From Alphaproteobacteria bacterium (GTDB taxonomy: Bacteria; Pseudomonadota; Alphaproteobacteria; MPNO01; UBA2964), in contig JBMYRG010000008.1 of assembly GCA_049602055.1 (NCBI GenBank), positions 20,618 to 84,617 on the forward strand: 64,000 bases of DNA, in the 5' to 3' direction. Shown in pieces: positions 43,970 to 60,677 of this stretch. Numbering within the stretch: position 1 is the first letter of the stretch; every line of letters begins with the position of its first letter. The translations under genes were made by a program, and so were the position numbers. The notes below the pieces were generated by a model. That model ran no database searches. It saw nothing but the letters and a program-made list of their open reading frames with translations, and was not told the origin of the DNA.

Positions 43970-44764
43970 TCACTCACCCTCCAGAACAGCCCGGACACCG
44001 TCCTGATTTTCACTCCCCCGCGCTTCCATGAGCGTCAGGAAGTCAGGAATAAACCAATCTGTCATGGCTGTCTTAAACGAGGGACGGGCGCGAATTCGGG
44101 TGAACCAGTCTGCGACCCCGGGGCGTGCATCAAACAGCCAGTCCTGCTGAAGATGTGAAACCCGGTTTACATAAGGTGTAAACGCGATATCCGCCAAGGA
44201 GTAGGTATCTCCAGCCATCCAGTCACCCTCGCCGAGCGCCTTTTCCATATCATCCAGCATCTTTACCACCCGTTTTATCGCTGGTTTGAAGAATGACGAC
44301 TCAACACCCTTCATGACGTTCTCGTTCATACGGGCGCGCTTTCCAGGATCAACATACCCATCGAGCGTTTCTTTCAACTGTTCCGGCGTTTTGCCTTCCA
44401 TGAATTGATAGCGAAAAGCGATACAGGCGCTAATCGTTGCGCTCGCCGCGTGTAACCCTTCATCAAGCTGTTTCACCCAAATCCGCATCTTCGCGCATTC
44501 ATAGGGTGATTCCGGCCGCAATGAAGGCTCTGGAAACACCGTGTCGAGATATTCATCGATAACGGCAGACTCATAGATGACCTTGCCATCATGGATAATT
44601 GTCGGCACCACGCCATTTGGGTTAAGCGCGAGGTAATCAGGATGATGCTGGTCGCGGGCACGCAGATTAAAATGATGCGAAGTAAATTCCTGACCTTTTT
44701 CTGCAAGCGTAATGCGAACCTTCTGCGAGCAGGTCGACATCCCATTATGATAGAGCTCAATCAT
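43970..44764 (-). CDS. Glutathione S-transferase family protein (STCSQK type), copy 1
   Basis: LYHNGMSTCSQKVR, LNPNGVVPT, ESAVIDEYLD, SLADIA. Start moved to ATG 44764. Confidence 0.9.
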   Translation of the reverse strand: MIELYHNGMSTCSQKVRITLAEKGQEFTSHHFNLRARDQHHPDYLALNPNGVVPTIIHDGKVIYESAVIDEYLDTVFPEPSLRPESPYECAKMRIWVKQLDEGLHAASATISACIAFRYQFMEGKTPEQLKETLDGYVDPGKRARMNENVMKGVESSFFKPAIKRVVKMLDDMEKALGEGDWMAGDTYSLADIAFTPYVNRVSHLQQDWLFDARPGVADWFTRIRARPSFKTAMTDWFIPDFLTLMEARGSENQDGVRAVLEGE

Positions 44765-44858
44765 CTCAATTCCTTTTTGTCTCTCGCTATAATTGCGTAA
44801 CATTGAATTGCGGCGGATTATCGTGCAAACAGCGCATTCAGACAACGGAGTGAAATTT

Positions 44859-45893
44859 ATGAGTACCCGCCTTTTGCCGACGACAGTGGTTGGCAGCTAT
44901 GTACAGCCTGACTGGCTGGTTGATCGCGACATGCTCAAGGCCATCGTCCCACCCCGTGTCCGTGCCCATGAAATATGGCGTATCGCGCCTGACCAGCTTG
45001 AAGAAGCCCAAGATGCCGCGACGCTTGCCGCAATTCACGATATGGAACGCGCCGGTATTGATGTCATCACGGACGGGGAAATTCGCCGCGAAAGCTATTC
45101 TAACCGGTTTGCCACTGCCCTCGAGGGTGTCGATATCGATAATCCTGCGGAGGTACCAGGTCGTTCCGGGCGCCCGATCCTTGTTCCACGCATTACCGGC
45201 GAGATTAAACGCACAGGCCCTATCGAAACCCGCGACGTAGAGTTCTTTCGGGCCAATACCGACCTAAAAATCAAGATTACGCTCCCTGGCCCGTTTACAA
45301 TGACCCATACAGCTGTCGATGAGCATTATGGGGACGATGAAGCCTGTGCAATGGCGCTCGCCGAAGCCGTCAATCAAGAGGTACGAGATTTATTTGCCGC
45401 TGGTGCTGACGTGGTGCAAATAGACGAACCATGGATGCAAGCGAAACCAGAACAAGCAAAACGTTTTGCGGTCAAGGTCATCAATAAAGCGCTCGAGGGC
45501 GCTACGGGAACAACCGCCGTCCATATGTGTTTTGGCTATGCCCACGCGGTCAAGGATAAGCCCAACGGCTACTCCTTCCTGCCAGAGCTTGCTGCCTGCA
45601 ATGCCGACCAGATTTCAATCGAAGCGGCACAGCCCGGCCTCGATCACGCCGCCCTGGATGCTCTTCAGAACAAAAAAATAATAGTTGGCGTTCTTGATCT
45701 AGGCGACGAAAACATTGAAACCCCGGACATGATCGCAGGACGCATTCGAGCTGCCTTGGAACATGTTTCCGCAGACCAGATGATAGTCGCCCCTGACTGC
45801 GGCATGAAATATCTCAGCCGCCCGGTCGCCTTCGGCAAGCTCAAAGCCATGGCCGAAGGCGCTGCGATCGTGCGGGCTGAGCTAGAGAGCTAA
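44859..45893 (+). CDS. Core (single-barrel) cobalamin-independent methionine synthase-like protein
   Basis: TTVVGSY, ITDGEIRRESY, KITLPGPFT, QIDEP, Zn ligands HMC, E and PDCG; no N-terminal folate barrel. Start moved to ATG 44859. Confidence 0.85.
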   Translation: MSTRLLPTTVVGSYVQPDWLVDRDMLKAIVPPRVRAHEIWRIAPDQLEEAQDAATLAAIHDMERAGIDVITDGEIRRESYSNRFATALEGVDIDNPAEVPGRSGRPILVPRITGEIKRTGPIETRDVEFFRANTDLKIKITLPGPFTMTHTAVDEHYGDDEACAMALAEAVNQEVRDLFAAGADVVQIDEPWMQAKPEQAKRFAVKVINKALEGATGTTAVHMCFGYAHAVKDKPNGYSFLPELAACNADQISIEAAQPGLDHAALDALQNKKIIVGVLDLGDENIETPDMIAGRIRAALEHVSADQMIVAPDCGMKYLSRPVAFGKLKAMAEGAAIVRAELES

Positions 45894-45900
45894 AACGCGC

Positions 45901-46818
45901 CTATTTCTTCTTCTTTGCTGTTTTCTTAGCCCGTATACGGGTTGTCGGTGTTGCAGAACTTGATGCCTTGCGTCTGGCCGCCTTTTTGAGATCAAGCTGC
46001 CCCAACCCCGGACGATAACTCTTTTCATCAAGAAATTGCCGCATGCCCTCGTCTCGGCCAGGGATTTTATCGGTCATTTTGCAGGCCTGATTCTTCACCG
46101 TCAGATAATCATCAGCCTCATTGACCCCCATCCGGCGTACGGCTCGGATCGCTTCCTTGGTGTAGCGCATCGCGTTGGGGCTTTTGGTCATGAGCTTTTT
46201 AGCAAGTTTAACCGTCTCCGCTTTGAGTTTAGACGCCGGGACCGAGTAGTTTACCAATCGAATTTTTTCAGCCGTTTTGCCATCGAACGGATCGCCGGTG
46301 ACAGCGTAGTACAAGGCGTCGCGATAGCTCAGCACATCGGCAACATTCCAACTCACAATGCCACCAGGGATAATCCCCCAATTCACTTCCGACAGACCAA
46401 AGGTCGCGGCGTGCGACGAGATCGCGAAATCACAAGCGCAGAGCTGGGTGAATGCGCCGCCAAAACAATATCCGTTGACCATCGCAATCGTTGGTTTCGG
46501 GAAGTTAACCAGTTTTTCCCAACGCCACGCATGCGAAGCCTTCTGGGTACGAACCCGGTTAATCGCGTCTTTCTCATTGGCCCGGAAATAGAGCGCGAGA
46601 TCCTGGCCCGCCGAAAAAGCCTTCCCCGCCCCAGTCAACACAAGCACTTGAGTATCCGGATCTTCTCCCAGCATATCGAGCGCTTCATTCATCTCAAAAT
46701 GCAGTTCAGGACTCATCGCATTGCGTTTTTCAGGCCGGTTAAGGATCAACCAGGTGATGCCCTTTTGAGCCCCTTTGCCTTTTTCGATTAGAACCGTATT
46801 AAATTTCTTTGCAGCCAT
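45901..46818 (-). CDS. Hydroxycinnamoyl-CoA hydratase-lyase (HCHL/Ech)-like crotonase
   Basis: LNRPEKRNAMSP, AG.DL..YFR, KPTIAMVNGYCFGG, FGLSEVNWGI, DYL..K, GMRQFLDEKSYRPGL closely follow Pseudomonas HCHL as I recall it. Confidence 0.8.
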   Translation of the reverse strand: MAAKKFNTVLIEKGKGAQKGITWLILNRPEKRNAMSPELHFEMNEALDMLGEDPDTQVLVLTGAGKAFSAGQDLALYFRANEKDAINRVRTQKASHAWRWEKLVNFPKPTIAMVNGYCFGGAFTQLCACDFAISSHAATFGLSEVNWGIIPGGIVSWNVADVLSYRDALYYAVTGDPFDGKTAEKIRLVNYSVPASKLKAETVKLAKKLMTKSPNAMRYTKEAIRAVRRMGVNEADDYLTVKNQACKMTDKIPGRDEGMRQFLDEKSYRPGLGQLDLKKAARRKASSSATPTTRIRAKKTAKKKK

Positions 46819-46958
46819 AATTTATGCCTCATTTTCCTGTTTTAAGTGATATGGCGCGAACGTTATCAGCCGCATGAATGCTCATCAAGAAGAGCCGTCG
46901 CTTGACCCGCAGGGCCGAGCCCCACAAAATCGCTTCTTAAATTCAGGGAGCAGCGAAG

Positions 46959-48155
46959 ATGAAAACCGCCATCGTTAATATCAAGACCATCGTCACCGGA
47001 GACTGGCGCAAACCATTTGCCAAAGGTGATTCCATTCTGATGGATAAGGGAAAAATCCGAAAAATTGGCACACTCAACAAAGCGGAGTTGAAAAGCTGTG
47101 ATGTTGTTATCGATGCCAATAAGACGACAGCCTGTCCCGGGTTAATCGACTCCCAGGTTCACATCGCCTTTGGTGACTACACGCCACGACAAAAAACCGT
47201 TGGGTTTATCGAAAGCTATCTCCACGGCGGTGTAACGAGTTGCCTGTCTGCCAGTGAGGTTCATGTGCCCGGTCGACCGACCGACCCTGAGGGGGTAAAG
47301 GCACTTGCCGTCGCAGCAAAAAAGAGTTTCGACAATCTTCGACCGGGCGGCTCACGCGTCTATGGCGGTTGCATCATTCTGGAACCCGGCCTCACCCAGA
47401 AAGATTTCAACGAGGTTGCCCAAAAAGGGATCTGGTTTGCCAAGGCGGGCTTTGGTGCCGTGAAAACACCATTTGATTACACGCCCTTGGTCAGAATGGC
47501 CCAAAAGGCCGGTATGCTGGTCAATTGCCATACCGGCGGTGCGTCAATTCCAGGTTCTTCGCCAATCATTGGCAAGCATCTAATGGATATGCGCCCGGAC
47601 GTCTCGTTTCATATTAATGGTGGGCCCATTGCGATGCCGGATGAAGATTTCCCAATGATCGTAAAGGAAACTGAAATTGCGCTACAGATATGCCAAGCCG
47701 GTAATATCCGTACCGCTTTGATGTGCCTCGATCTAGCTGTTGAGAATGATCAGTTTGACCGCTTTTTGATTGCCACAGACACCCCAACGGGCACCGGTGT
47801 CATGCCGCTTGGAATGATCAAATCTGTGACCGAGATGGCTACCCTTTCTGATTACCCTGCCGAATGGATGCTGGCCGCCGCCACCGGCAGCGTCGCCAAA
47901 ATCTACGGCCTCAACTCCGGCTTTATTAAACGCGGCAAGGACGCCGATATTTTATTGATTGATGCCCCGCTGGGTGGCAGCAAGAAGACGGCGCTCGAAG
48001 CCATCAAGCATGGTGATCTCGCCGCCGTCGGTGCCGTCATTACCGATGGTATTCCAAGGTTTGTCGGACGCAGCCGCAATACACCACCGACCACTCGTAC
48101 GGTCCGAACCATCAGAAACAATGTTCCCTTCGATTTCTCCGGTGCCGCGCATTAA
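46959..48155 (+). CDS. Enamidase-like amidohydrolase
   Basis: GDYTPRQKT, LHGGVT, HVPGRP, ILEPGLT, HTGG.SIPGS, HINGGP, D.P.GTG..PLG, SRNTPP follow Eubacterium barkeri enamidase as I recall it. Confidence 0.82.
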   Translation: MKTAIVNIKTIVTGDWRKPFAKGDSILMDKGKIRKIGTLNKAELKSCDVVIDANKTTACPGLIDSQVHIAFGDYTPRQKTVGFIESYLHGGVTSCLSASEVHVPGRPTDPEGVKALAVAAKKSFDNLRPGGSRVYGGCIILEPGLTQKDFNEVAQKGIWFAKAGFGAVKTPFDYTPLVRMAQKAGMLVNCHTGGASIPGSSPIIGKHLMDMRPDVSFHINGGPIAMPDEDFPMIVKETEIALQICQAGNIRTALMCLDLAVENDQFDRFLIATDTPTGTGVMPLGMIKSVTEMATLSDYPAEWMLAAATGSVAKIYGLNSGFIKRGKDADILLIDAPLGGSKKTALEAIKHGDLAAVGAVITDGIPRFVGRSRNTPPTTRTVRTIRNNVPFDFSGAAH

Positions 48156-48166
48156 GGAACACCCCC

Positions 48167-48742
48167 ATGCATATCCGAAAAATTGTCACCGCTGTTGAAG
48201 AAACATTCAGTGAAGCGGGACAAAACGCCGATACGCCGCTGCGCAAGGTTGCGGTCATTGCCGTCGTCAAAAATCCATATGCCGGTGCCTCGTATGAAGA
48301 AGACCTGTCTTCCTTGACAGATGCAAGCGAAGCGCTCGGCAAACAGATTACCAATATGGCAGCAGCCGCAATGAAACCCTACGCGATGGAAAGCTATGGC
48401 AAAGCGTCCGTCGTTGGTACAGCAGGTGAGCAACAGCACGGCTCCGCTATGGTCACAACGATCTATGGGAATGTGATGCGTGAAGCTGCCAATGGTGGCG
48501 CTGCCTGGATTTCCTCGACATCAAAACGAATAGCGCCCGGAGGCATCATCGATGTCCCACTCGCCCATAAAGACGCGCTCTATGTTCGGTCACATTACGA
48601 CACGATGACCGTGATGATCCCCGACGCGCCACTGCCCGATGAAATAGCGGTTATCTGCTGCTATGCCAATCGCGGCCAGCTCAATTCCCGTATTGGAGGG
48701 CTGGAAGCAAAAGACATCAAAGGCGAAGACGGTTTGACCTAG
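48167..48742 (+). CDS. DUF1185 (amino acid synthesis family) protein
   Basis: IRKIVT, AVIAVVKNPYAG, ESYGKASVVG..GEQQH, DVPLAHKD, RSHYDT, DAPLPDEI. Confidence 0.85.
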   Translation: MHIRKIVTAVEETFSEAGQNADTPLRKVAVIAVVKNPYAGASYEEDLSSLTDASEALGKQITNMAAAAMKPYAMESYGKASVVGTAGEQQHGSAMVTTIYGNVMREAANGGAAWISSTSKRIAPGGIIDVPLAHKDALYVRSHYDTMTVMIPDAPLPDEIAVICCYANRGQLNSRIGGLEAKDIKGEDGLT

Positions 48743-48860: not shown

Positions 48861-48893
48861 AAAGAAACGGTCCGGTGCACCCCACCGGACCGT
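48861..48893 (-). terminator. Intrinsic terminator downstream of second dctM
   Basis: ACGGTCCGGTG-caccc-CACCGGACCGT 11-bp stem with adjacent A-tract on the plus strand. Confidence 0.82.
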
Positions 48894-48931
48894 CATCTTC
48901 TAACGTGCAGACGGACTCCGCCTGCCTCCCC

Positions 48932-50245
48932 CTAAGTCCCCATAAGGCTGGGCAGATACAACGCCACACCGGGTGCAATTACGAGAATGATGATCAGGAC
49001 CAGGTCACAGAACAGGTATGGCAACGCTGCCATCGCGACCTCGCCCAGGGTCGTCTCCTTGACCATCCCTAACATGATAAATAACAACAATCCGAAGGGC
49101 GGCGTCGTCGCACTCATTTCAAGAGACATAAGAACAATCAGCGAGAACCAGATTGGGTCATAGCCAAGCGAGATCGCCAACGGATAAAAGATCGGCACGG
49201 TGATCAACATCATCGAAACCTGGTCCATAAACATCCCCAGCATAATCAACACCAAGAACATACAGGTCAGGATCAAGAGCGGCGAGACATCGAAACCTGT
49301 TGCCCAGCCGACCAACCCCCGGCTCGCACCGGACATTGATAAAAGCTGACTAAATACCGTCGAGTTCATCAAGATGAAGAAGACCATACCGGCAACACGG
49401 ATCGTACCCTGCAAGGATGTCTTAAAGGCCGTCCAGGTAAACACCCGCCGTGCTACAGCCAGGATAACTACCCCGACAACGCCGAATGACGCGGACTCAG
49501 ATGGCGTTGCCCAACCAAGAACGATAAAGCCAATGACCATAAAGACCACCAGCCCCATCGGCAGGATGTTGACACAAATCTGGTAGATCTTTTCTTTCCA
49601 GGTCGTCGGCTCCACGTCATAACTTGGCGCTGATTCCGGATTCTTCCAAAGCATGAACGTAATCATCAGAGCATAAAGCACGGCCAGCAGAATCCCGGGC
49701 AACAGTCCGGCGATCAACAAACGACCAACATCAACTTGAGCTATACTGGCCAGAAGGACACCCAGCGAGGAAGGCGGAATGATCATCGCAAGCCCACCGG
49801 TGCCAAGGATCGGCCCCATCGACATCTTTTTACTGTAACCACGACGGGTCATTTCAGGGACCAGAAGCGATCCCAGCATAGCCGTATTGGCCATCGTTGA
49901 CCCCGTCAGGGTCGAAAACAGTGAACCACCAATAACGGTCAGATAACACAGTCGACCCGGGATTTTACCGAGCAGCTTGTCAAGGGCATCAAAGACCCTG
50001 ATTGCTAGTCCCGTATGGAAAAACAGCGACCCCATCAAAATAAACATCGGGATCGGCGACAGTGTAAATGACGTGATCAGATTGGTGGCATTGTCAGCAA
50101 TTTGCGGCAATACCGGCCAGCCGCCGGAAAACACGAAAATACCGATCACATTGGTGATCATGAAGGTGAAAGCGACAGGGAAGCCTAGAGCCATCCCTGC
50201 AACAACACAGCCTAGTAACAGGCCGCCAGATTCATACCATTCCAT
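48932..50245 (-). CDS. dctM: TRAP transporter large permease (system 2), paralogue of 35103-36416
   Basis: MEWY start, MANTAMLGSL, MGPILGTGGLAMIIPPS, TTPPFGLLL shared with system 1. Confidence 0.95.
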   Translation of the reverse strand: MEWYESGGLLLGCVVAGMALGFPVAFTFMITNVIGIFVFSGGWPVLPQIADNATNLITSFTLSPIPMFILMGSLFFHTGLAIRVFDALDKLLGKIPGRLCYLTVIGGSLFSTLTGSTMANTAMLGSLLVPEMTRRGYSKKMSMGPILGTGGLAMIIPPSSLGVLLASIAQVDVGRLLIAGLLPGILLAVLYALMITFMLWKNPESAPSYDVEPTTWKEKIYQICVNILPMGLVVFMVIGFIVLGWATPSESASFGVVGVVILAVARRVFTWTAFKTSLQGTIRVAGMVFFILMNSTVFSQLLSMSGASRGLVGWATGFDVSPLLILTCMFLVLIMLGMFMDQVSMMLITVPIFYPLAISLGYDPIWFSLIVLMSLEMSATTPPFGLLLFIMLGMVKETTLGEVAMAALPYLFCDLVLIIILVIAPGVALYLPSLMGT

Positions 50246-50247
50246 GA

Positions 50248-50766
50248 CTAAACGCCGTCCTTAACTTCGCCCAGATCGTACGAGTAGTAGGACCGAAGAC
50301 CCACGAGATACATGCAAAACTCAAATGCAACGAGCAAAAAACACAATGGTAATGGCAGGAACTGCAACCAGTACGGCATATCGACGCCACGAACATCAAG
50401 TTCACCACCGACCCAGTAATCCGCGAAAATACCCCAGCACAAATAGGCAAACAGGAAGGATACTGCAGCGCAAACCAAATAGATAACTTTGGCGAGCGGT
50501 TGCCGGACAGAATCCGGCAAAGCCGCCACCAAAGCTTCAATGACGACATGTCCACGCTCGCGGACTAGCCACGGAGCGGAACACATCGCCATATAGAGAA
50601 GTGCATACTCAACGACCGATGATGTGAAGAGCGGTGGGCGGTAGCCCAAAGTCCTGATCGACACATCAATCGTAATCATCAGGAACATGCAGGGGATAAG
50701 AGCACAGGCGAACCAAGACAGTGCCGTACTCGTTTTCCCGAGCATTAAATCAAAAGTCTGTAACAA
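50248..50766 (-). CDS. dctQ: TRAP transporter small permease (system 2)
   Basis: Four TM helices, DVSIR, VEY, GHVVIE. Confidence 0.9.
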   Translation of the reverse strand: MLQTFDLMLGKTSTALSWFACALIPCMFLMITIDVSIRTLGYRPPLFTSSVVEYALLYMAMCSAPWLVRERGHVVIEALVAALPDSVRQPLAKVIYLVCAAVSFLFAYLCWGIFADYWVGGELDVRGVDMPYWLQFLPLPLCFLLVAFEFCMYLVGLRSYYSYDLGEVKDGV

Positions 50767-50801
50767 TGGACTTTCCTTTTATCGTTGGTATGCAGACAGG
50801 T

Positions 50802-51842
50802 TTACTGCTTCAAACGCGTGTCACCCAGATCCATCTGACGGTCGGGTTTTCCTGGCGTGTAAAGAAGAGGCTTAAGCTGATCGTGGTATTTAGACCGGGT
50901 CTTCAGCTCCTTCCAGATTTCAGCATGAGCGATATCCAGATATTTCTGGGCAGTTTTGCCCGTCAGCTGAATGTCAATGATGCCCTGTTTCTTGACCAGG
51001 ACTTCTTCCGCCAAACGCTCTTTTTCAACGAATTTAACCGAGGTGTTTTCATACTCAAGGGCAACTTTCTCAAGAAAGGACTTTTCTTTCTTGGTCAATT
51101 TAGCCCAAGAGGCGAGATTAACCGTTACGACCTGGTTCGTCTGATAGAAGTTTGGCTGTACCCGATACTTAATAACGGGGCCGAGACCAATTGCCATCAC
51201 TGAGCTATCGGTCATGCCGAAGCCCTGAACCGTGCCGCGCTGCATAGCGGTAATGATTTCGCTCGATTTGATGTTAATGGTCGTCGCACCAAGGGCCCGG
51301 AACAATGGGCGATAGGTACCAGTCGCCCGCATCTTAACGCCACGAAGATCAGGCAGACCGTCTTTGTCCATTTTAGGCTTAATGCCGAGGAACATGTTGT
51401 AAGACGTCATGTTCTCGCCCCAGGCGAGGAGATGGGCACCAGCCTTTTCCGCATAGATTTTCTGCAATAAAGCAAAACCACCATTGGCACGAAGGGCACG
51501 AGGGCCTTTATTGGCAGCCAAAAGGCCATAGCCTTCAGGAACTGTACCAATGTAATACGCAGTTGGTGCGCTAAGAACGTCGAACTGTCCACGTTTAAGC
51601 GCTGAAGCAGCCTTACGTGGCGGTACAACTTCCTGTCCACCGAGATATTTCATCTGCACATTGCCCTTACCTTGGGCATTAACGGCACCGATGAAATTTT
51701 TGATATAGGATTTGGCGAGAATGTTTGTTTGCTGCAGAGCCGTAACCGTTGTGAGGGTTGTCTCGGCGACCACAGGTGACGTTGAGATCACGGCGGCTGC
51801 TGCAACAGCAATCGCGCCCATCCCAGTTTTTACGGAAATCAT
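50802..51842 (-). CDS. dctP: TRAP substrate-binding protein (system 2, copy A)
   Basis: Signal peptide, GGQEVVPPRKA, LKRGQFD, LRGVKMR, AMQRGTV. Confidence 0.9.
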   Translation of the reverse strand: MISVKTGMGAIAVAAAAVISTSPVVAETTLTTVTALQQTNILAKSYIKNFIGAVNAQGKGNVQMKYLGGQEVVPPRKAASALKRGQFDVLSAPTAYYIGTVPEGYGLLAANKGPRALRANGGFALLQKIYAEKAGAHLLAWGENMTSYNMFLGIKPKMDKDGLPDLRGVKMRATGTYRPLFRALGATTINIKSSEIITAMQRGTVQGFGMTDSSVMAIGLGPVIKYRVQPNFYQTNQVVTVNLASWAKLTKKEKSFLEKVALEYENTSVKFVEKERLAEEVLVKKQGIIDIQLTGKTAQKYLDIAHAEIWKELKTRSKYHDQLKPLLYTPGKPDRQMDLGDTRLKQ

Positions 51843-51947
51843 CTTGTACTCCCTAATTTCAATTCAATTATTCAGTCGTGATTAAAAAACAAAGCAATTG
51901 GCCAAGAATAAATCCCGCCTTTTAAAATTTGTCATTCATCCCGCGGC

Positions 51948-51976
51948 ATACTGAACGGACTCTTTTTTGTTGTCAA
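51948..51976 (-). promoter_or_regulatory. Sigma-70-type promoter for dctP copy A
   Basis: TTGACA-N17-CAGTAT on the minus strand, with hexamers and spacing identical to the element before copy B. Confidence 0.65.
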
Positions 51977-52028
51977 ACACGCTCTATAACAACGTTATGA
52001 CGAGATATCCCCAGCAAATTTTTTACAT

Positions 52029-52062
52029 AAAAAAACGGCACCAACCTAAAGGCTGACGCCGT
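52029..52062 (-). terminator. Intrinsic terminator between the tandem dctP genes
   Basis: Minus-strand RNA ACGGCGUCAGCC-UUUA-GGUUGGUGCCGU (12 bp with G-U pairs) followed by a U-tract. Confidence 0.8.
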
Positions 52063-52102
52063 CTTTTAATCGATAGATCTCTTAATTGAGATCAACCAGA
52101 AT

Positions 52103-53146
52103 TTAGCGTTTCTGATCAAGCATACGACCCGTATCAACCTGACGGTTAGGCTTGCCAGGCTTGTATAGAAGTGGCTTCAGTTGGTCGTGGAACTTCGACC
52201 GTTTCTTCAGCTCTTTCCAGATTTCGCCGTGAGCGATATCGAGATATTTCTGAGCAGCGGCACCCTTCAGAACCACATCCTTGATACCAGCCTTCTTCAG
52301 CTGCAGTTCTTCGGCCAGACGGGTCTTTTCAACAAACTTCACAGAAGCAGTCTCATATATGACGGCCTGAGCGTTGAGAAAATCCTTCTGCTTTTTGGTC
52401 AATGAATCCCAGGTCTTTGGGTTAACCGTCAGCACCTGGTTCGTCTGATAGAAGTTTGGCAAAACACGGTATTTTGTAACCTTGTCGAGGCCCAATGAAA
52501 TAACCGACACATCAGTAAATCCGTAACCATCGACAGTACCGCGCTGAATTGCAGTGATCACTTCCGAAGACTTGATATTAATCGTGGTCGCACCGAGCGC
52601 CCTGAAAAGAGGACGATAGGTACCGGTCGCCCGCATCTTGTAACCTGTAAGATTTGGAATTCCGTCAGCACCAAGCTTCGGCGCTTTGTGAAGATACATG
52701 TGATAGGACGTCATGCTCTCGCCCCAGGCTAGAAGGTGAGAACCGGCCTTCTCTTTATAAATCTTCTGCAGCAGAGCAAATCCACCGTTCTTACGGAGAA
52801 CCTTGGGACCCTGATTTGAAGCGAGAATGCCATAGCCCTCGGGAACCGTCCCGATATAATAGGCTGTCGGGCAAGCCAGCATGTCAAACTGACCACGCTT
52901 AAGAGCTGCAGCAGCTTTACGCGGTGGCACTACTTCCTGACCACCGACATAATTAATCTTGACGATACCCTTACCTGCCGCATTTACCGGCTTCATAAAA
53001 GTCTGCAAAAAGCTCTGCGCAATAACGTTGGTCTGTTGAAGACCAGTCACGGCATTCAGCGTCCGCTCTGCAGCAAAAGCTGAACCACCCGCTAAGGCGA
53101 CCGTTGCAGCTGCCGCCGCAAAAATTCCTGAATTCAATATTTTCAT
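52103..53146 (-). CDS. dctP: TRAP substrate-binding protein (system 2, copy B)
   Basis: Close paralogue of 50802-51842 (for example PTAYYIGTVPEGYG, KMRATGTYRPLFRALGATTINIKSSE). Confidence 0.9.
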   Translation of the reverse strand: MKILNSGIFAAAAATVALAGGSAFAAERTLNAVTGLQQTNVIAQSFLQTFMKPVNAAGKGIVKINYVGGQEVVPPRKAAAALKRGQFDMLACPTAYYIGTVPEGYGILASNQGPKVLRKNGGFALLQKIYKEKAGSHLLAWGESMTSYHMYLHKAPKLGADGIPNLTGYKMRATGTYRPLFRALGATTINIKSSEVITAIQRGTVDGYGFTDVSVISLGLDKVTKYRVLPNFYQTNQVLTVNPKTWDSLTKKQKDFLNAQAVIYETASVKFVEKTRLAEELQLKKAGIKDVVLKGAAAQKYLDIAHGEIWKELKKRSKFHDQLKPLLYKPGKPNRQVDTGRMLDQKR

Positions 53147-53268: not shown

Positions 53269-54924
53269 TTAAAAGGTTTCTTTTTCGTCCCAGCCAGCCT
53301 CCGCATCGCGCACAGACGTTTCGGGCACCAGACCCTTTTGCTGCCGTTGCAATGTGCGAGCGCCATTCTCCAGATAATCACCCGCGGCTGCGCGTTCAGC
53401 GGCGTCAGCCCAGTCCTGCGTCCAGTCACCAAGCGAATAGCCGAACCAGGGTGGCGTCGGACGAACTGGTGGCAGACCGAGTTTGTTCCATAGCTTGAGA
53501 CCACGCTCCATATATTCCTGGGTCGGAAGCGCGACAGGCGGCATATCACTTTTCATTGTCGCATCAATGAGCAAAGTCGAATCTTCTTCGCCAGTGTGTT
53601 CGCGCTTGGGGCCATGCCCCTGGCCGCGATGTGCCAGCGTTAGAACATCGTCAACCGGGTTAAGGCGATAGGCAATCGCCCAAAGCAAGGCATCGGCATT
53701 GTCGGGGTCGATATCTTCGTTCACCGCGATACAGACCTTGCTGCAGTCACCTTTGAAGTAGGCTGAGCCATAAAGAGCCCGCCAAATCTCGGTTTTCGGC
53801 GTGTCTCTTTCGACCGTAATGATAGTGACTCGCAACAATCCCGTCAGAGGTTCATGCAGCGAGACCTTTTTAACTCCCTTAATTCCCAACGCATCGCGAA
53901 GATGGGCCAGGAACAGCGGTTCATAAGCCACGCGCTTTATGACACTCGATTCAGAAGGCGCCGCCTGACTTATATAAGAGGTGAGGACAGCATCTTTGCG
54001 ATGCGTAATAGCGGTCACCTGCATCGGCATATTGAATTCTTCGAGCGCAACATGGCCGTGGCTTTCACCAAACGGACCTTCAGGCTCAACCATCTCGGTA
54101 TCGATAATGCCTTCGATAACCAATTCTGCTTCTGCAGGCACCATCAGATCAACAGTCCGTGCCCTGACCATATTAATAGGTGCGCCAGCGAGACCACCGG
54201 CCACCCCAACCTCATCGATATCAAGCGGAAGTTTCTGGGGGCCCATAAAGGCGACGACTGGTGGGCAACCAAGAACGATAGCCACCGGCATTTTCTTTTC
54301 GCCGCGCGCCTGATGCTTTTTGTAGTGGGCATAACCGCCGGCACCACCAACCCGCGTTGCCATGCGGACGACCATACGATCAGACGCTTTTAAGGCTGCC
54401 CGGTACGTCCCCATATTCTGAACACCTGTTTCCGGATCGCGGGTTACAACATTCGTTGAAGTTAATGTCGGTGCGGCGTCAAAACCCGGGGTCGAAACCG
54501 GGATCGGCAGTGAGTCGATGCCGTTTCCTTCACCCAGCAGCGCGTCACCTTCAATGATTACCTCGTGACAGGGCGCGTCTTCGACAATCACCGGGTCGAC
54601 AGGATTATTAATCGCCGTATCCCATTTGGCGCCGATCTCATCAACGGGTGCCTGCATACCGACACTATATATGTCCTGATTTGCGGCCAGCGCGCCGACC
54701 ACGATCGGCAGATCATATTTGCGCCCTTTGGCATTCACGACATTCGTGAACAAAAACGCCCTGCGTTCGCTTTCCTTAAGACCGCCAACAAACTGCCACC
54801 GCACCAGCGCATGCATTTCGGCATCTTTATCGACGGGATCATCGACAGTGATCAAAAGCCCCGCCTCATCGAGGGCTTTAATGTGGTCATGAAGATCGCG
54901 ATAGTCTCGTTTAGGGCTGGTCAT
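53269..54924 (-). CDS. UbiD-family (prFMN-dependent) decarboxylase
   Basis: DLHDHIKALDEAGLL, NMGTYR (catalytic Arg), VPAEAELVIEG, EGPFGE (catalytic Glu pair), IAVNEDID, LLWAI..R. Confidence 0.92.
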   Translation of the reverse strand: MTSPKRDYRDLHDHIKALDEAGLLITVDDPVDKDAEMHALVRWQFVGGLKESERRAFLFTNVVNAKGRKYDLPIVVGALAANQDIYSVGMQAPVDEIGAKWDTAINNPVDPVIVEDAPCHEVIIEGDALLGEGNGIDSLPIPVSTPGFDAAPTLTSTNVVTRDPETGVQNMGTYRAALKASDRMVVRMATRVGGAGGYAHYKKHQARGEKKMPVAIVLGCPPVVAFMGPQKLPLDIDEVGVAGGLAGAPINMVRARTVDLMVPAEAELVIEGIIDTEMVEPEGPFGESHGHVALEEFNMPMQVTAITHRKDAVLTSYISQAAPSESSVIKRVAYEPLFLAHLRDALGIKGVKKVSLHEPLTGLLRVTIITVERDTPKTEIWRALYGSAYFKGDCSKVCIAVNEDIDPDNADALLWAIAYRLNPVDDVLTLAHRGQGHGPKREHTGEEDSTLLIDATMKSDMPPVALPTQEYMERGLKLWNKLGLPPVRPTPPWFGYSLGDWTQDWADAAERAAAGDYLENGARTLQRQQKGLVPETSVRDAEAGWDEKETF

Positions 54925-55046: not shown

Positions 55047-55928
55047 ATGAAAGCAGCCAGTTTCGACTATGTCCGCGTTGCCTCTATTGAGGAGGCCTGC
55101 CAGGCCTTGGCTGACGGCGGCGAAGATGCCCGTATTATCGCGGGTGGCCAGACCATGATCCCGTTAATGGCCATGCGCCTTGCCCGGCCATCCCTGCTGA
55201 TCGACATAAATGACGTTAGCGAACTTGCCGGTATTTCAGTAGACGGCGACCATCTCGTAATAAGAGCGGGCACCCGCCAGTATGATACCCTTGCCTCCGA
55301 AACCGTAAAATCGCAACTTCCCTTGCTCGCAGACGCGCTATCACATGTCGGACATACTCAGACCCGCAATCGCGGCACTGTCGGCGGCAGTCTCGTCAAT
55401 GCCGACCCGTCCGCCGAAATCCCCTTAATCGCGCAAACACTCGATGCAACGATTGTTGCGCAAAGCACCCGCAGCCAACGAACAATTGCGGCGAGTGACT
55501 TTTTCGAATCTGCGATGGCGACAACTCTCGCGCCGGATGAATGCCTTGTTGAAGTTCGATTCCCAATCTGGCCATCCGAGAATACCGGCTTCGGGTTTCA
55601 CGAAGTCAGCATCCGCGACAGTGACTTCGCGCTGGCAGCGGCAGCAGCGCAGACGACGTTGGATGGCAATGGCAAATGCCAGAAATTAGCGGTCGCTATC
55701 TGCGGTGCTTCTCCTGCCGCGTTAAGGCTGACCGGCGTTGAAGGGACTCTGGTTGGCGGCGATCTCAATGACGATGCCATCAAAACCACCTGCGCCAATA
55801 TTGACGATCTCATTGATCCGCAATCCGACGTCCACGCTGATGCTGCCTATCGTGGCCGCGTTGCCAAGGTGATGGCGCGACGCGCAATTAGCGATGCGCG
55901 TGACCGGGCAAATGGAATTCTGGCATGA
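55047..55928 (+). CDS. Molybdenum hydroxylase FAD-binding (medium) subunit
   Basis: MKAASFDY, IAGGQTMIP, RNRGTVGGSL, ADPSAE, DAAYR. Confidence 0.95.
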   Translation: MKAASFDYVRVASIEEACQALADGGEDARIIAGGQTMIPLMAMRLARPSLLIDINDVSELAGISVDGDHLVIRAGTRQYDTLASETVKSQLPLLADALSHVGHTQTRNRGTVGGSLVNADPSAEIPLIAQTLDATIVAQSTRSQRTIAASDFFESAMATTLAPDECLVEVRFPIWPSENTGFGFHEVSIRDSDFALAAAAAQTTLDGNGKCQKLAVAICGASPAALRLTGVEGTLVGGDLNDDAIKTTCANIDDLIDPQSDVHADAAYRGRVAKVMARRAISDARDRANGILA

Positions 55929-56407
55929 GCGAACATAAAATCACTCTTACTGTAAATGGACGCGAGATGTCAGGCCACGCTGAAGCACGGCTGACATTGG
56001 TTGATTTTTTACGTGATGTGTTGGGACAGACCGGTACGCATATCGGCTGCGAACATGGCGTCTGCGGCGCCTGCTCAGTGGTTATGGACGGCAAACCAGT
56101 CCGCTCCTGTTTGATGTTTGCCGTCATGGCGGATGGTCATGACATCATGACCGTTGAGGGCCTGGAAGGTCCCGAAGGTGAACTCAGCCCGCTGCAGGAC
56201 GCGTTCTGGGAAAACCACGCAATGCAGTGCGGCTACTGCACACCGGGCATGTTGATCGCAACCCATACATTGTTGCAGGAAAATCCCAATCCAAACGAAG
56301 CTGAAATTCGCGAAGCCATTGGGGGGAATTTGTGCCGTTGCACTGGCTATCAGCAGATTGTCGAAGCCGTTCAGATGACGGCCAAGAAATTGCGGGCGGC
56401 AACATAA
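55925..56407 (+). CDS. Molybdenum hydroxylase 2x[2Fe-2S] (small) subunit
   Basis: GCEHGVCGACSV, SC, QCGYCTPG, NLCRCTGY. Confidence 0.97.
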   Translation: MSEHKITLTVNGREMSGHAEARLTLVDFLRDVLGQTGTHIGCEHGVCGACSVVMDGKPVRSCLMFAVMADGHDIMTVEGLEGPEGELSPLQDAFWENHAMQCGYCTPGMLIATHTLLQENPNPNEAEIREAIGGNLCRCTGYQQIVEAVQMTAKKLRAAT

Positions 56408-58806
56408 TGCCTGATACCAATGCCTCACCGGAATACCGCTATATCACCAAGAAGCGTCGCGTTACTGAGGACCGCCGCTTTATCACCGGACGCGGCAACT
56501 TCGCCGCCGATTATAATATGCCTGGCATGTTGCATGTCGCGATGGTCACCAGCCCCTATACTTGCGCCGAAATCAAAGGCATCAATGCCGAGGCGGCGCT
56601 CGCCTTACCCGGCGTTCGCTATGTCCTGACCGGGGCAGAGCTGTTCGAAAACATCAACCCGCTACTATCCGGCCTAGACCTACCCAAGGTTAAACGCATT
56701 CCGCTGGCGCATGAACGAGCGCGCTATGCCGGAGAATGGGTCGCTGCCGTGGTTGCCGAAACCCGTCATATCGCGGAAGACGCCGTCGAGCTGGTGGAGG
56801 TGGATTACAATCCGATTGAATTTGTTATCGACCCGGAAAAAGCGATGCTGCCAGACGCGCCGCTGGTCCACCCGCAACATGGCAGCAACATTCTGTGCGA
56901 TAAAACCTGGGTGTGGGGTGATGTCGATGACGATTTTGAGTCCGCACCGCATTCGCTTGCTTTCCGCGCCCGTTGGAGCCGTTGCTCGACAGTTCCGATA
57001 GAGACCTTCGTTGTCACCGCGAAATGGGATGAAGGCAAAGAGGTCCTCGATGTCTGGGCTTCGATTCAGATGCCGAAATATCCCGAGCAAATCGCCCGCG
57101 CCCTCAGCCTGCCGGTAAACGCCATTAATGTTCATTTCGACGTTGATGTTGGCGGTTCTTACGGTCTCAAACGCGGCATTCGGCAGACCGTGATCGTCAG
57201 CTATCTGACCCGTAAGCTACGCGCGCCGGTGCGTTTCAACGAAGATCGTCTTGAGAATATGTCTGGCGGCGAAATGCATGGCCCTGACCGTATCTTCGAT
57301 ATGGAAGTCGCCTTTGATGATGACGGCATCATGCATTCACTCAAGATAAAGGCCACGGATGACGCTGGATGCTATCCCGGTCGGGCGCCTCTGCAACTCG
57401 GTAAACCGGTTAGTGCCATTGTCGGGCCCTATAGGATCAAGAGCGCGTCCTATACCGCCATTTCTGTAACAACAAACAAGACCAGCCAGGAAGCTGTCCG
57501 TGGCTTTGGGCAGGCCCCGACCAATTTTGCCATTGAAGTAATGGTCGACAAGGTCGCGCGCAAACTTGGGATCGACCGTGACGAGGTACGCCGCCGCAAT
57601 TTGATCCGCGCTGATGAGTTCCCGTACCGAATTCCGTCAGGTTCCGAATATGACAGTGGCGATTACCATACCGTCCTCGACAAGCTGCAAGAATCTGCGG
57701 GTTGGCAGGAACTCCTGGCTAAACGCGATGCGATCAGAGCTGAGGGCAAACTTGCCGGACTTGGCATCTCAACCTGCCTCGAACCGTCCGGCGGCAACTC
57801 GTCCTTCGAGCCATTCTTTAATCCGAAAAACGACACGACAACCTGGATGGAATCCTGCTTGATCAAGGTCGATATGTTGGGATCAATTACCGCCTTGATG
57901 GGAACTTCGACATCAGGCCAGGGGCACGAAACACTCCTGTCCGCCGTGATTGGTGAAGTCCTCGAACGCGACCCGGACACGATCCGCGGCGTACATGCAG
58001 AATCTCTGGGCGCCCTGCCCTCCAACAGCCCCGTTGGCAGCCGTATGGCAATTATGCTTGGCGGTGCGGCAGCAGGTGCCGCAGAGAAAATCAAGAAACA
58101 GCTTCTCGAAATAGCGGCCCATAATTTCCAGCTACCGGTCGACCGGCTGATCTATGACGGTGGCGATATCTCGGTCGATGGCGACCCAGACAAAGTCATG
58201 AGCTGGAATCTGCTGATCGATATTGCCCATCGCCAATATCATAAAATGCCCCTGGGATCAGAACCGGGCCTGCAGGCGCAGCATACCTGGGAGGTTCCAA
58301 CTGGCGGTGCATTACCCGCCGAAGACGGCACTGTACAAATGTATCCCTGCTACGCTTTTGAGGCTCATATTCCGCTAATTTCAATTGATCCGGAAACCGG
58401 TCAGGTGGAAATCCTCGATTACCATATGGGTCATGATTGTGGCACAGTGCTAAATCCCGACATCGTGCGTGGCATGACCTTTGGCGGCATCGCCCACGGC
58501 ATCGGCGCGGCTTTGTATGAAAAATTCGAATATGACGAAGGCGGCCAGCATTTATCAGGCTCGTTTATGGATTACCTACTGCCTTCGTCGCATGAAATTC
58601 CCCATGTCGAGATGATCAAACATTACACACCATCGCCTCTGACCACGTTTGGTCAGAAGGGGTCGGGTGAATCCGGTTATCTCGGCGCACCAGCCGCTAT
58701 CGCCAGCGCTGTCAATGACGCGCTGGCACCACTTGGGAAATCTATCGAAACCCTACCGATGCGAGTTCGTGATATCGAGGCCCTGCTCAATGGGCAAATT
58801 GAATAA
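56407..58806 (+). CDS. Molybdenum hydroxylase molybdopterin (large) subunit, xanthine-dehydrogenase family, not CO dehydrogenase
   Basis: ED.RFITGRG, VGGSYG.K, active-site loop EAVRGFGQ, GQGHET, GGIAHGIG, DYLLP, KGSGE. ATG 56407 overlaps the stop of the small subunit. Confidence 0.93.
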   Translation: MPDTNASPEYRYITKKRRVTEDRRFITGRGNFAADYNMPGMLHVAMVTSPYTCAEIKGINAEAALALPGVRYVLTGAELFENINPLLSGLDLPKVKRIPLAHERARYAGEWVAAVVAETRHIAEDAVELVEVDYNPIEFVIDPEKAMLPDAPLVHPQHGSNILCDKTWVWGDVDDDFESAPHSLAFRARWSRCSTVPIETFVVTAKWDEGKEVLDVWASIQMPKYPEQIARALSLPVNAINVHFDVDVGGSYGLKRGIRQTVIVSYLTRKLRAPVRFNEDRLENMSGGEMHGPDRIFDMEVAFDDDGIMHSLKIKATDDAGCYPGRAPLQLGKPVSAIVGPYRIKSASYTAISVTTNKTSQEAVRGFGQAPTNFAIEVMVDKVARKLGIDRDEVRRRNLIRADEFPYRIPSGSEYDSGDYHTVLDKLQESAGWQELLAKRDAIRAEGKLAGLGISTCLEPSGGNSSFEPFFNPKNDTTTWMESCLIKVDMLGSITALMGTSTSGQGHETLLSAVIGEVLERDPDTIRGVHAESLGALPSNSPVGSRMAIMLGGAAAGAAEKIKKQLLEIAAHNFQLPVDRLIYDGGDISVDGDPDKVMSWNLLIDIAHRQYHKMPLGSEPGLQAQHTWEVPTGGALPAEDGTVQMYPCYAFEAHIPLISIDPETGQVEILDYHMGHDCGTVLNPDIVRGMTFGGIAHGIGAALYEKFEYDEGGQHLSGSFMDYLLPSSHEIPHVEMIKHYTPSPLTTFGQKGSGESGYLGAPAAIASAVNDALAPLGKSIETLPMRVRDIEALLNGQIE

Positions 58807-58840
58807 ACCACACTGACAAACATATCCTGGGAGAGAAGAG

Positions 58841-59563
58841 ATGAGCGATGAGCTGCTGATTAAACAAAACGGACGCATTCTGGAGGCAACCCTCAACCGC
58901 GAAGACGGCGCCTGTTCAGATGCAATGGCTGCCGAACTCTCCGCCGCCATGCTTGCCGCGCATGAAACCTCCGACATGGTTCTGCTCCGCAGTGCCGGAC
59001 CGGATTTCTGCACCGGACGCGCCCGCAACGCCGATGCCGGCAAGCCTGACCCGGAAGCCTATGCCCGCCGCAAAGAATATGACTCGATCTTCAATTGCTA
59101 CAAAGCAATCCGCAATGCTCAGGTGCCAATTGTCGGTGTCATCGAAGGCCGTTGCATGGGCTTTGGCACAGCCGTCGCCGCATTGTGCGACGTGTCATTC
59201 GCCAGCAGCACGGCAACCTTTAATATCCCAGAGATCGCCCACAACGTCATGCCAACCATGGTGATGTCGGCGCTCTATGACCGGATCAATCGCAACGCCA
59301 TCATGTGGATGACCTATACGACACAGTTTATAGATGCAGACCGCGCACTGAATTATGGCTTCATCAGCCAGGTTGTCGATGCGGACAAACTCAATGCCGA
59401 AGTCGATCAGTTCTGCGAGACCCTGTTGAGCCGACCGCGCCCGGCGATTCTGGGACTCAAGGAATATCTCCACGTCGCACCGAAGATGGACGAGCTTGGT
59501 GCCATTGATTACGGTCGTGCATTGCATTCCATGGTCAATACTGCGGCCGACATGAAAAAATAG
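58841..59563 (+). CDS. Atypical crotonase (enoyl-CoA hydratase/isomerase superfamily)
   Basis: TLNR, VPIVGVIEGRCMGFG, CDVSFAS, FNIPE, A..AL.YGFISQVV. Confidence 0.85.
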   Translation: MSDELLIKQNGRILEATLNREDGACSDAMAAELSAAMLAAHETSDMVLLRSAGPDFCTGRARNADAGKPDPEAYARRKEYDSIFNCYKAIRNAQVPIVGVIEGRCMGFGTAVAALCDVSFASSTATFNIPEIAHNVMPTMVMSALYDRINRNAIMWMTYTTQFIDADRALNYGFISQVVDADKLNAEVDQFCETLLSRPRPAILGLKEYLHVAPKMDELGAIDYGRALHSMVNTAADMKK

Positions 59564-59572
59564 AGGTCTATT

Positions 59573-60571
59573 ATGATCGTCGATACCCATGCCCATTACC
59601 TTCCCCAGGCAATGCTGGAGGGTTTAAACAATCGTGGCTCGGATTTTCCCAATATCGACTGTCTGAATGAGGACAATGTCTGGAAGCTCGGCTTCTCAGG
59701 TGGACCCCTAACAAGACCAATCCTGCCCGGGCTGCGTCAGAGCGACACCCGGCTGCAATGGATGGACGATCAAAAGATCGACGCGATGGTATGCGGTGGC
59801 TGGCTCGACAGCTTCGGATATGAAATCCCGGATGCTGAGGGCAAACGCTGGAGCCAGTTCATCAATGAGCATCTGCTGAAGGCCTGTTCCGAGTCGGATC
59901 GCTTTGCGCCGCTCTGCAGTGTACCATTGCAAAACGGCAGGATGGCGGCAGAGGTTCTGGAAGAAGCCCTCAATGCTGGTTTCCATGGCGCGATGATTGG
60001 TACTCAGCCCAAGGGCGGCGAAGGCAATCTCGACGATCCAGACCTCGATCCATTTTGGGAGGTTGCCTCAGACCGTAAGGCCGCGATTTATCTGCACCCG
60101 ATGTTTGGCTGTGGTGATCCACGTTTGCTGGATTACGCGCTGATAAACACGGTTGGGCGCGGAATAGACACCATTACCGCAATGTCTCGCCTGATCTTTG
60201 CCGGTCATCTGCAAAAATATTCCGGCATGAATTTTGTTCTCAGCCATGGCGGCGGCGGGCTTCCGTTTCTCCTCGGTCGATTGCAGATGAACCACGACCA
60301 CAATCCTGAATGGGGCAATCCTCGGGCCAGCCTGGACGCCTGCTATTACGACACGGTGGTCAATGACGTAAAAACCCTGGAATTCGTTTGCAAAGTATTC
60401 GGCGCGGGAAAAGTCATGATGGGATCAGATTACCCCTTTGCCTTTGGCGATCTGGAACCACGCAAAATCATTGAAGCGGCTGACCTCACAGACAGCGACA
60501 AGCAAAGCATCCTCGGTGATGTCGCAGAACGTATCTTCCATCTCGAAGATTGCGGCTGCGCCCATAGCTAG
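59573..60571 (+). CDS. Amidohydrolase_2-family (ACMSD/LigW/LigJ-like) decarboxylase or hydratase
   Basis: DTHAH (HxH), MDDQKID, LDDPDLDPFWE, YLHP, LSHGGG.LP, GSDYPF. Confidence 0.88.
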   Translation: MIVDTHAHYLPQAMLEGLNNRGSDFPNIDCLNEDNVWKLGFSGGPLTRPILPGLRQSDTRLQWMDDQKIDAMVCGGWLDSFGYEIPDAEGKRWSQFINEHLLKACSESDRFAPLCSVPLQNGRMAAEVLEEALNAGFHGAMIGTQPKGGEGNLDDPDLDPFWEVASDRKAAIYLHPMFGCGDPRLLDYALINTVGRGIDTITAMSRLIFAGHLQKYSGMNFVLSHGGGGLPFLLGRLQMNHDHNPEWGNPRASLDACYYDTVVNDVKTLEFVCKVFGAGKVMMGSDYPFAFGDLEPRKIIEAADLTDSDKQSILGDVAERIFHLEDCGCAHS

Positions 60572-60593
60572 GACTAAACGTATACCGAAATAT

Positions 60594-60626
60594 CGGCGGC
60601 CCGAATTATTCGGTGCCGCCGTTTTT
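60594..60626 (+). terminator. Intrinsic terminator inside the Mo-hydroxylase gene string
   Basis: CGGCGGCCCGAA-tta-TTCGG(t)GCCGCCG followed by TTTTT. Confidence 0.75.
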
Positions 60627-60677
60627 CGTTCTAACGTTCCGCGCTATGCTTGTGGCCAATAGGAAAAGGAGAGCGCG

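Follow-up and report, generated by a model that had tools for sequence, protein, structure and literature searches.

Enamidase (Ena, EC 3.5.2.18) from the nicotinate fermentation of Eubacterium barkeri converts 6-oxo-1,4,5,6-tetrahydronicotinate to 2-formylglutarate and ammonia, as stated in PMC7356986, and enamidase homologues are also included in the proteobacterial nicotinate (THON) clusters of Azorhizobium caulinodans and Bradyrhizobiaceae SG-6C (PMC3511419). In another pair of metalloenzymes, the isoaspartyl dipeptidases, the two zincs are bridged in type I by a Glu placed after a Gly in a bent loop and in type II by a carbamylated Lys (PMC7774594). The small proteins of family PF06684 (AA_synth, DUF1185) have a fold described as 'Bacillus chorismate mutase-like' and form hexamers in crystals (PMC2954203); one of them, TgnF, is cited in PMC7913881 as stimulating semialdehyde turnover in trigonelline breakdown. 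Here we describe a two-gene locus, an enamidase-like gene followed by a DUF1185 gene, in a 64,000-nucleotide stretch of the genome of a marine alphaproteobacterium of lineage UBA2964 (contig JBMYRG010000008.1, positions 20,618 to 84,617), hereafter called the window, whose own numbering is used throughout.

Within a known enzyme family, the product of the enamidase-like gene is a genuine variant under strong conservation, and it is best kept apart from the nicotinate enamidase. Its subfamily, large and conserved and called K type below, has Lys where Ena has its strand-4 Glu. With moderate confidence, we propose that the product is an active metal-dependent lactam or enamide hydrolase, and that the DUF1185 protein is its enamine helper, both serving an N-heterocyclic acid other than the nicotinate intermediate.

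Fold and metal-ligand positions

In Pfam the enamidase-like protein matches the general amidohydrolase model PF01979 only, and a search of NCBIfam gave no model that names it. With HMMER, the enamidase structure 2VUN was aligned over the full length (residues 2-383, E 3.9e-100), far ahead of the next match (E 6e-17). 2VUN is the single solved enamidase, and the roles of the Ena ligands were taken from this alignment and from general knowledge of the superfamily. The AlphaFold model of the window protein (predicted local distance difference test score, pLDDT, 95.4) resembles 2VUN well ahead of all other structures, with TM scores of 0.93/0.96, a root-mean-square deviation of 1.7 A and 43% identity.

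The six ligand positions, read from the translation and the HMMER alignment, are Q66-H68-K162-H191-H218-D274, whereas the ligand set of Ena is H-H-E-H-H-D; four of the six positions are equal, and Q66 and K162 differ. In the translation of the gene, PGLIDSQVHIAFGD holds Q66 and H68, and WFAKAGFGAV holds K162. Q66 aligns with the first His of the enamidase motif DTHVHV, the window motif being DSQVHI, so that strand 1 carries QxH where the sister sequences within the K clade carry HxH. K162 aligns with the Glu of the enamidase motif GEVGLG; the window protein reads (A)KAGFG at this point, with a deletion of one residue just before it. The kept ligands are H191 (CHTGG), H218 (FHINGG) and D274 (ATDTP). 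In the model, strands 62-67, 160-163, 187-191, 215-217 and 269-272 carry or precede Q66/H68, K162, H191, H218 and D274, respectively, which places the ligands at or just past the C-terminal ends of strands 1, 4, 5, 6 and 8 of the (beta/alpha)8 barrel, the ligand sites of the superfamily. A first-pass annotation of the window had read the first motif as DSQVH and the strand-4 position as KAGFG, with the other His, His and Asp ligands kept, and the translation, the alignment to 2VUN and the model all agree with it.

Ligand states across the family

Full-length representatives at 50% identity were aligned together with homologues from 80 genome loci; the neighbourhoods discussed below are related loci from genome and metagenome contigs, for which open reading frames (ORFs) were called and clustered separately (L-numbers denote sampled loci). 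The 80 genome loci show three nested ligand states, H-H-E-H-H-D (HHE type, 55 loci), H-H-K-H-H-D (H/K, 18 loci) and Q-H-K-H-H-D (Q/K, seven loci plus the window). A Gly-Glu pair and a loop longer by one residue characterise the HHE type; the K type lacks the pair and is shorter by one residue ahead of the ligand.

A quick IQ-TREE tree of 70 sequences supports the K-type proteins as one clade, sister to the canonical Glu type, and the strand-4 Lys, predicted to bear a carbamate, is present and invariant throughout this clade. The Q sequences do not form one group on the same quick tree but fall into a Burkholderiales group, a soil group and a marine group that includes the window protein; counted on branches with SH-aLRT support only, at least three H/Q changes are forced. 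In the sample, Q was seen solely on a K background. Over three independent Q/H contrasts, no column other than position 66 tells the Q from the H groups apart, and a search across these contrasts found no substitution coupled to H66Q. Lys at strand 4 is a character of the whole clade and Gln66 a switch within it, with no joint redesign of the two positions. Because Q toggles at least three times in the K clade without a coupled change, Q alone marks no new substrate. The remodelled metal centre proposed in the first-pass annotation holds in part: a carboxylated bridging Lys at strand 4 is the superfamily's classical state and has direct precedent in the isoaspartyl dipeptidases (PMC7774594), but Q and K did not arise as a joint change.

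The pattern itself is firmly kept. All 119 of the 119 database homologues of at least 66% identity have both Q and K, in the motifs SQ[VI]H and AKAGFG, and Gln66 is encoded by CAG at 21 loci and by CAA at 17. Since both Gln codons are in use, the Gln is kept by selection, and the two observations together show that the pattern is due neither to chance nor to a sequencing error. By analogy with the isoaspartyl dipeptidases, a classical binuclear centre with a carboxylated Lys is the most likely meaning of K162, and Q66 is better described as a recurrent and tolerated change in one ligand of the alpha site than as part of a joint redesign.

The same hydrolase role could also be filled by a mononuclear enzyme, in which Gln66 abolishes the alpha site and a single metal sits at the beta site. 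The single-metal model for such an enzyme is E. coli NagA, in which HxH is replaced by QxN. The strict conservation of Gln in place of a His ligand would suit this arrangement, and known mononuclear members exist in the superfamily (PMC7356986). However, a lost site should let its remaining ligands drift, whereas H68, D274 and the bridging K162 are invariant among the Q-type sequences, and the sister H-type sequences differ from them at no other consistent position. We therefore regard a mononuclear centre as unlikely.

Paralogues and nicotinate-type clusters

The genome holds three enamidase homologues and three DUF1185 genes. On contig C52 (L149, 2456-7605), an HHE enamidase gene lies between the gene of a molybdenum (Mo) hydroxylase large subunit and two isochorismatase-like genes. 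Contig C19 (L148, 7094-10089) carries a gene for a Fer4-domain protein resembling the 6-hydroxynicotinate reductase Hnr, followed by that of a partner of ~290 amino acids and a tandem DUF1185 pair; this Fer4-domain protein is 62% identical to the product of a gene of ~500 codons that flanks HHE enamidases elsewhere. The canonical nicotinate-type genes of this genome are divided between these two contigs. The third enamidase paralogue, on C31 (L150, 2941-4155 and 5403-7751), reads 'VKFIFF' at strand 4, so that its Lys is shifted and it has neither the Glu nor the AKxGFG pattern; the same form occurs in L083, P0163, P0193 and P0214, is kept in many relatives at ~36% identity and lies near another Mo-hydroxylase large subunit gene.

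The canonical arrangement, with Mo-hydroxylase subunits, enamidase, Fer4 protein, 290-amino-acid protein, DUF1185 and often an ATP-binding cassette (ABC) importer, recurs in Thermodesulfobacteriota, Acidobacteriota and Proteobacteria. Among the 80 genome loci, the Hnr-like Fer4 cluster (c4) adjoins HHE copies only (18 of 18), and no Hnr-like gene stands beside a K-type copy in the sampled loci. A tblastn search of the window found no homologue of the Hnr-like Fer4 reductase or of its usual partner, in agreement with the first-pass statement that the window lacks a 6-hydroxynicotinate reductase, and the window gene does not cluster with canonical nicotinate dehydrogenase (Mo) and 6-hydroxynicotinate reductase genes. 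The wider statement that the locus is 'without nicotinate genes' stands for the Hnr-like gene, but it overlooked a Mo-hydroxylase and a UbiD decarboxylase nearby (Table 1). The large subunit of this Mo-hydroxylase is merely 32-37% identical to those encoded beside HHE enamidases. Tandem DUF1185 paralogues are usual beside HHE enamidases (L046, L047, L050, L053, L055, L059, L060, L064, L067, L071, L072, L082, L085), and K-type loci have a single copy.

A K-type copy was found in 30 of 41 related genomes, most of which also keep an HHE paralogue of ~39% identity. Such stable coexistence suggests that the two copies have different jobs. The window protein could nevertheless be an isofunctional second enamidase of the nicotinate (THON) pathway, with Glu to Lys and His to Gln as neutral alternatives at the same metal site. 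Its 43-45% identity and near-identical fold to Ena, the toggling between H and Q without coupled changes, the presence of DUF1185 beside nicotinate-type clusters too, the Mo-hydroxylase 6 kb away and the interchange of Glu and carbamylated Lys among the isoaspartyl dipeptidases would all be compatible with this. What speaks against it is that a canonical HHE copy with a Mo-hydroxylase, and an Hnr-like gene, are already present elsewhere in the genome, that most relatives retain both paralogues, that the Hnr-like gene is missing from the window and from the sampled K-type loci, that the window Mo-hydroxylase is only distantly similar to the HHE-linked ones, and that K-type loci have O2-dependent flavin monooxygenases instead. 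We consider isofunctionality improbable. Because of the H/E paralogue and the Hnr-like gene elsewhere in the genome and the lack of an Hnr-like gene at K-type loci, the window protein is best seen as a paralogue distinct from the nicotinate enamidase, for which a nicotinate role is unlikely; this supports the earlier suggestion of a substrate different from the nicotinate intermediate.

The DUF1185 partner and its exchange with RidA

The TAA stop codon of the enamidase-like gene ends at 48155 and the DUF1185 gene starts with ATG at 48167, with AGGA 8 nt before it, which leaves the gap of 11 nt given in the first-pass annotation. Its product scores 215.7 bits with the PF06684 model (cut-off 27) and matches the sequences of 2QTP (E 1e-40) and 3BYQ (E 5e-22). 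PF06684 is its sole Pfam match; searches gave no PF01042 or TIGR00004 match and no NCBIfam match at all. The structural model (pLDDT 96.3) has the fold of 3BYQ (Z 28.7) and 2QTP (Z 22.1), and its best match outside DUF1185 is the Rid-family protein PA0814 (Z 6.6, 113 residues aligned). At least seven further Rid/YjgF entries follow at Z 4.6-5.5, a range in which only a common arrangement may be meant. These matches are in keeping with the fold published for the family (PMC2954203).

DUF1185 is the most conserved neighbour of enamidase homologues of every type and lies within 7 kb in 52 of the 80 genome loci. Where enough flanking sequence was available, it was directly adjacent in 12 of 15 Q/K, 10 of 25 H/K and 13 of 40 HHE loci, and it was near the enamidase gene in 34 of the 40 HHE loci; both gene orders occur. 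Cultured bacteria in which a Q/K gene is accompanied by DUF1185 include Pigmentiphaga kullae K24, Paraburkholderia lycopersici TNe-862 and Caballeronia sp. dw_19. The co-occurrence with DUF1185, which had been put forward as a trait of the Q/K variant, is thus not specific to it, since the pairing is family-wide and includes nicotinate-type clusters.

In nine H/K loci, the enamidase gene is directly preceded, at a distance of 0-56 nt, by a gene of the RidA/YjgF family (PF01042; TIGR00004 'Rid family detoxifying hydrolase'), a position that DUF1185 often takes at other loci, and DUF1185 is absent from all nine. Hydrolysis of a cyclic enamide gives a linear enamine, which must tautomerise and lose ammonia. 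RidA-type proteins process such enamines in other pathways, for instance RutC and 2-aminomuconate deaminase. On the basis of this exchange, of the likeness to the Rid fold and of the role cited for TgnF, we propose that DUF1185 may be an enamine-processing helper, which probably removes the amino group after ring opening. The first-pass idea that DUF1185 acts on the product fits the exchange with RidA.

Gene contexts of K-type loci

The context sample comprised 35 Q/K and 36 H/K loci. An HpaB-type oxygenase, with a flavin reductase, is encoded at 15 H/K and two Q/K loci; FAD_binding_3 monooxygenase genes occur within the operon in Pigmentiphaga (L011) and also in L007. Recurrent regulators are of the GntR/FCD or MarR type and recurrent importers are of the NMT1 type or tripartite ATP-independent periplasmic (TRAP) transporters. 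UbiD decarboxylases recur too, and K-type loci also have a HIBADH-like semialdehyde reductase, a protein of the fumarylacetoacetate hydrolase (FAH) family and a thiamine pyrophosphate (TPP) enzyme. The common theme of these loci is the aerobic breakdown of an imported nitrogen-containing ring acid.

A deep-marine Q/K subgroup (L101-L113, L123, L125; ~67% identity) has as conserved neighbours an HDAC-like deacetylase, a second amidohydrolase of 536 amino acids, an NMT1-type ABC importer and a nitrilase-family hydrolase. Two candidate routes were considered for the K-type loci. Homarine catabolism (homABCDER, PMC13236597), a marine candidate, was rejected, as it contains no enamidase homologue. 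Pyrrole-2-carboxylate as a substrate is a suggestion only: a reference list confirmed that a two-component flavin monooxygenase exists, and the search for data at the gene level gave none.

The frequency of HpaB or FAD_binding_3 monooxygenases raises the question whether the K-type proteins are O2-dependent ring-cleaving enzymes on an amidohydrolase scaffold, acting right after the flavin monooxygenase. This is the case for KpiC, a 3,4-dihydroxypyridine dioxygenase of PF01979 that follows a flavin monooxygenase and whose closest characterised relative is enamidase (PMC7356986). However, KpiC is 28% identical to Ena (PMC7356986) and the K clade 43-46%, so that, judged by the published identity, KpiC falls outside the clade. 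Furthermore, the K-type proteins retain the full binuclear ligand set with its bridging Lys, and their RidA, DUF1185 and HIBADH-like neighbours fit the enamine-to-aldehyde product of a hydrolysis. A dioxygenase role therefore seems quite improbable. A catalytically dead relic or a mere binding protein, as the exchange of one canonical ligand for a weak one might suggest, is hardly credible given five other invariant ligand positions, the conservation of the pattern in all 119 homologues with synonymous codon variation, an intact ORF tightly coupled to its partner gene and the retention of the gene in most of the related genomes.

Genes around the pair in the window

Coordinates of the pair and of its neighbours are given in Table 1. 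The promoter match, which is no more frequent than in shuffled sequences, sits in the divergent intergenic region, 140 nt long, ahead of the enamidase-like gene, and GGGAG is found 9-13 nt before the ATG of this gene at 46959. The hairpin separates DUF1185 from dctM, which is convergent with it, and may end both transcripts.

Table 1. Features of the window at and around the enamidase-DUF1185 pair.
Feature	Coordinates	Strand	Evidence or remark
GST-like gene (longest ORF)	43970-44845	-	TTG start
MetE-like gene (longest ORF)	44793-45893	+	TTG start
Crotonase gene	45901-46818
Weak sigma-70-like promoter match, candidate only	46902-46930	+	TTGACC, 17 nt spacer, CAAAAT; 9/12 matches
Enamidase-family amidohydrolase, K type with Gln at first HxH position	46959-48155	+	398 aa; PF01979; 2VUN match
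PF06684 (AA_synth, DUF1185) protein	48167-48742	+	191 aa; PF06684 E 4e-64; 11-nt gap with AGGA
GC-rich perfect 12-bp hairpin, likely terminator	48866-48894		12 pairs, 8 GC; T-run on minus strand
TRAP transporter genes	48932-53146	-	Pfam
dctM	48932-50245	-	Pfam
dctQ	50248-50766	-	Pfam
dctP	50802-51842	-	Pfam
Second dctP	52103-53146	-	Pfam
UbiD-family decarboxylase	53269-54924	-	551 aa; Pfam; orthologues beside K-type genes
Mo-hydroxylase, three subunits	55047-58806

The same TRAP genes follow the pair in the close relatives L087-L090 and L095, and TRAP genes precede the H/K enamidase genes in L121, L126, L133 and L144. From this association, the TRAP system probably imports the carboxylate substrate of the pathway.

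The UbiD and Mo-hydroxylase genes lie 4.5-6.3 kb downstream of the pair. Orthologues of the window UbiD are found beside K-type enamidase genes in L094 (73% identity; convergent and directly adjacent), Caballeronia L015 (51%) and Rhodoplanes L016. Because UbiD orthologues adjoin K-type enamidase genes at these unrelated loci, the pair and the UbiD/Mo-hydroxylase module (53269-54924 and 55047-62210) probably form one catabolic island. A second type of UbiD is present in L097-L102.

On the other side of the pair, the crotonase and MetE-like genes were dropped as candidate partners and are probably unrelated, since loci L090 and L091, at 91% identity, have neither of them. When the longest ORFs are taken, the GST-like and MetE-like genes share 53 nt in a head-to-head overlap; the real starts of both genes probably lie further in.

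Proposed role of the pair

In the mechanism that we propose, the first gene product would be a metal-dependent cyclic-amide (lactam or enamide) hydrolase of the enamidase family, in which the bridging strand-4 Glu is replaced by Lys162, most likely with a carboxylated side chain like that of dihydroorotase, hydantoinase and type II isoaspartyl dipeptidase; the first His of HxH switches freely with Gln inside the K subfamily. The adjacent TRAP importer would probably feed the pair, and hydroxylation, decarboxylation or both would probably ready the substrate; the UbiD decarboxylase encoded within a few kb would probably work alongside. The hydrolase would then open a ring C-N bond of an N-heterocyclic carboxylic acid to give a linear product that is an enamine, and DUF1185, with its YjgF/chorismate-mutase-like fold, would speed the tautomerisation and hydrolysis of this enamine to an aldehyde or keto acid and ammonia.

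Several points weigh against this proposal. The neighbourhoods of the Q/K genes vary widely, and no single substrate can be read from them. The likeness between the DUF1185 and Rid folds is modest (Z 4.6-6.6) and interspersed with matches to OmpA-like domains. On the quick tree, the RidA-bearing loci form one clade, hence one replacement event and not several. In the deep-marine Q/K subgroup (13 contigs) neither DUF1185 nor RidA is nearby, so that these bacteria either do without the helper or encode it at another place. Gln serves only rarely, and poorly, as a metal ligand, which may have weakened or even removed the alpha metal site. To our knowledge, the only characterised member of the family is the Glu-type enzyme of E. 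barkeri. Finally, this enzyme (EC 3.5.2.18; reaction as given in PMC7356986) is described as doing both steps itself.

A more general hypothesis, which we put forward tentatively and hold to be somewhat less probable than the proposal for the window pair, is that DUF1185/AA_synth proteins are enamine (or enol) tautomerase-deaminases that stand in for RidA. Together with Lys-type enamidases, whose first ligand is His or Gln, possibly tuning the metal, they might form a widespread aerobic module that opens hydroxylated N-heterocyclic acids. A hydroxylated pyrrole- or pyridine-carboxylate in its lactam tautomeric form would be a candidate substrate for this Lys-type module.

These results bear on annotation as well as on enzymology. 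Thousands of database proteins are labelled 'enamidase', a label that spans at least three ligand types with differing gene contexts, so that an enamidase gene by itself is no safe basis for annotating nicotinate catabolism. Marine and soil bacteria have abundant members of the K-type clade, which marks a route for nitrogen-ring compounds and bears on the turnover of marine dissolved organic nitrogen. The exchange of RidA for DUF1185 offers a first testable biochemical hypothesis for PF06684, a family with two crystal structures, and the free His/Gln switch at a primary ligand constitutes a natural experiment on the tolerance of the alpha site in binuclear amidohydrolases.

Comparison with known systems

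The closest described system is Ena itself (2VUN), with which the window protein has family and fold in common over its whole length and probably also the kind of chemistry, the hydrolysis of a cyclic enamide followed by loss of ammonia. Unlike Ena, the window protein has a loop shorter by one residue at the Lys, an aerobic-style context of flavin monooxygenases, UbiD and TRAP genes, and a separate canonical paralogue in the same genome. The sampled loci that match the THON clusters have DUF1185, often in tandem, and an HHE enamidase beside a Mo-hydroxylase, an Hnr-like Fer4 protein and an ABC importer, whereas the window gene is of the K type and does not have these last three as neighbours.

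The isoaspartyl dipeptidases show the same strand-4 alternative of Glu or Lys, including the Gly-Glu loop of the Glu type, but belong to another family with another substrate, and no Gln at HxH is reported for them in PMC7774594. As regards the partner, DUF1185 resembles RidA/YjgF deaminases such as RutC of the Rut pathway in being a small protein encoded beside a C-N hydrolase with an enamine product; unlike RidA, it has no detectable PF01042 match, is ~60 residues longer and is hexameric in crystals (PMC2954203). TgnF of the trigonelline pathway of Acinetobacter baylyi and HcdD of the 7-hydroxycoumarin pathway are themselves DUF1185 proteins; both are auxiliary proteins in the catabolism of a heterocycle or lactone, the partner enzymes of the two are not enamidase homologues, and no effect could be shown for HcdD.

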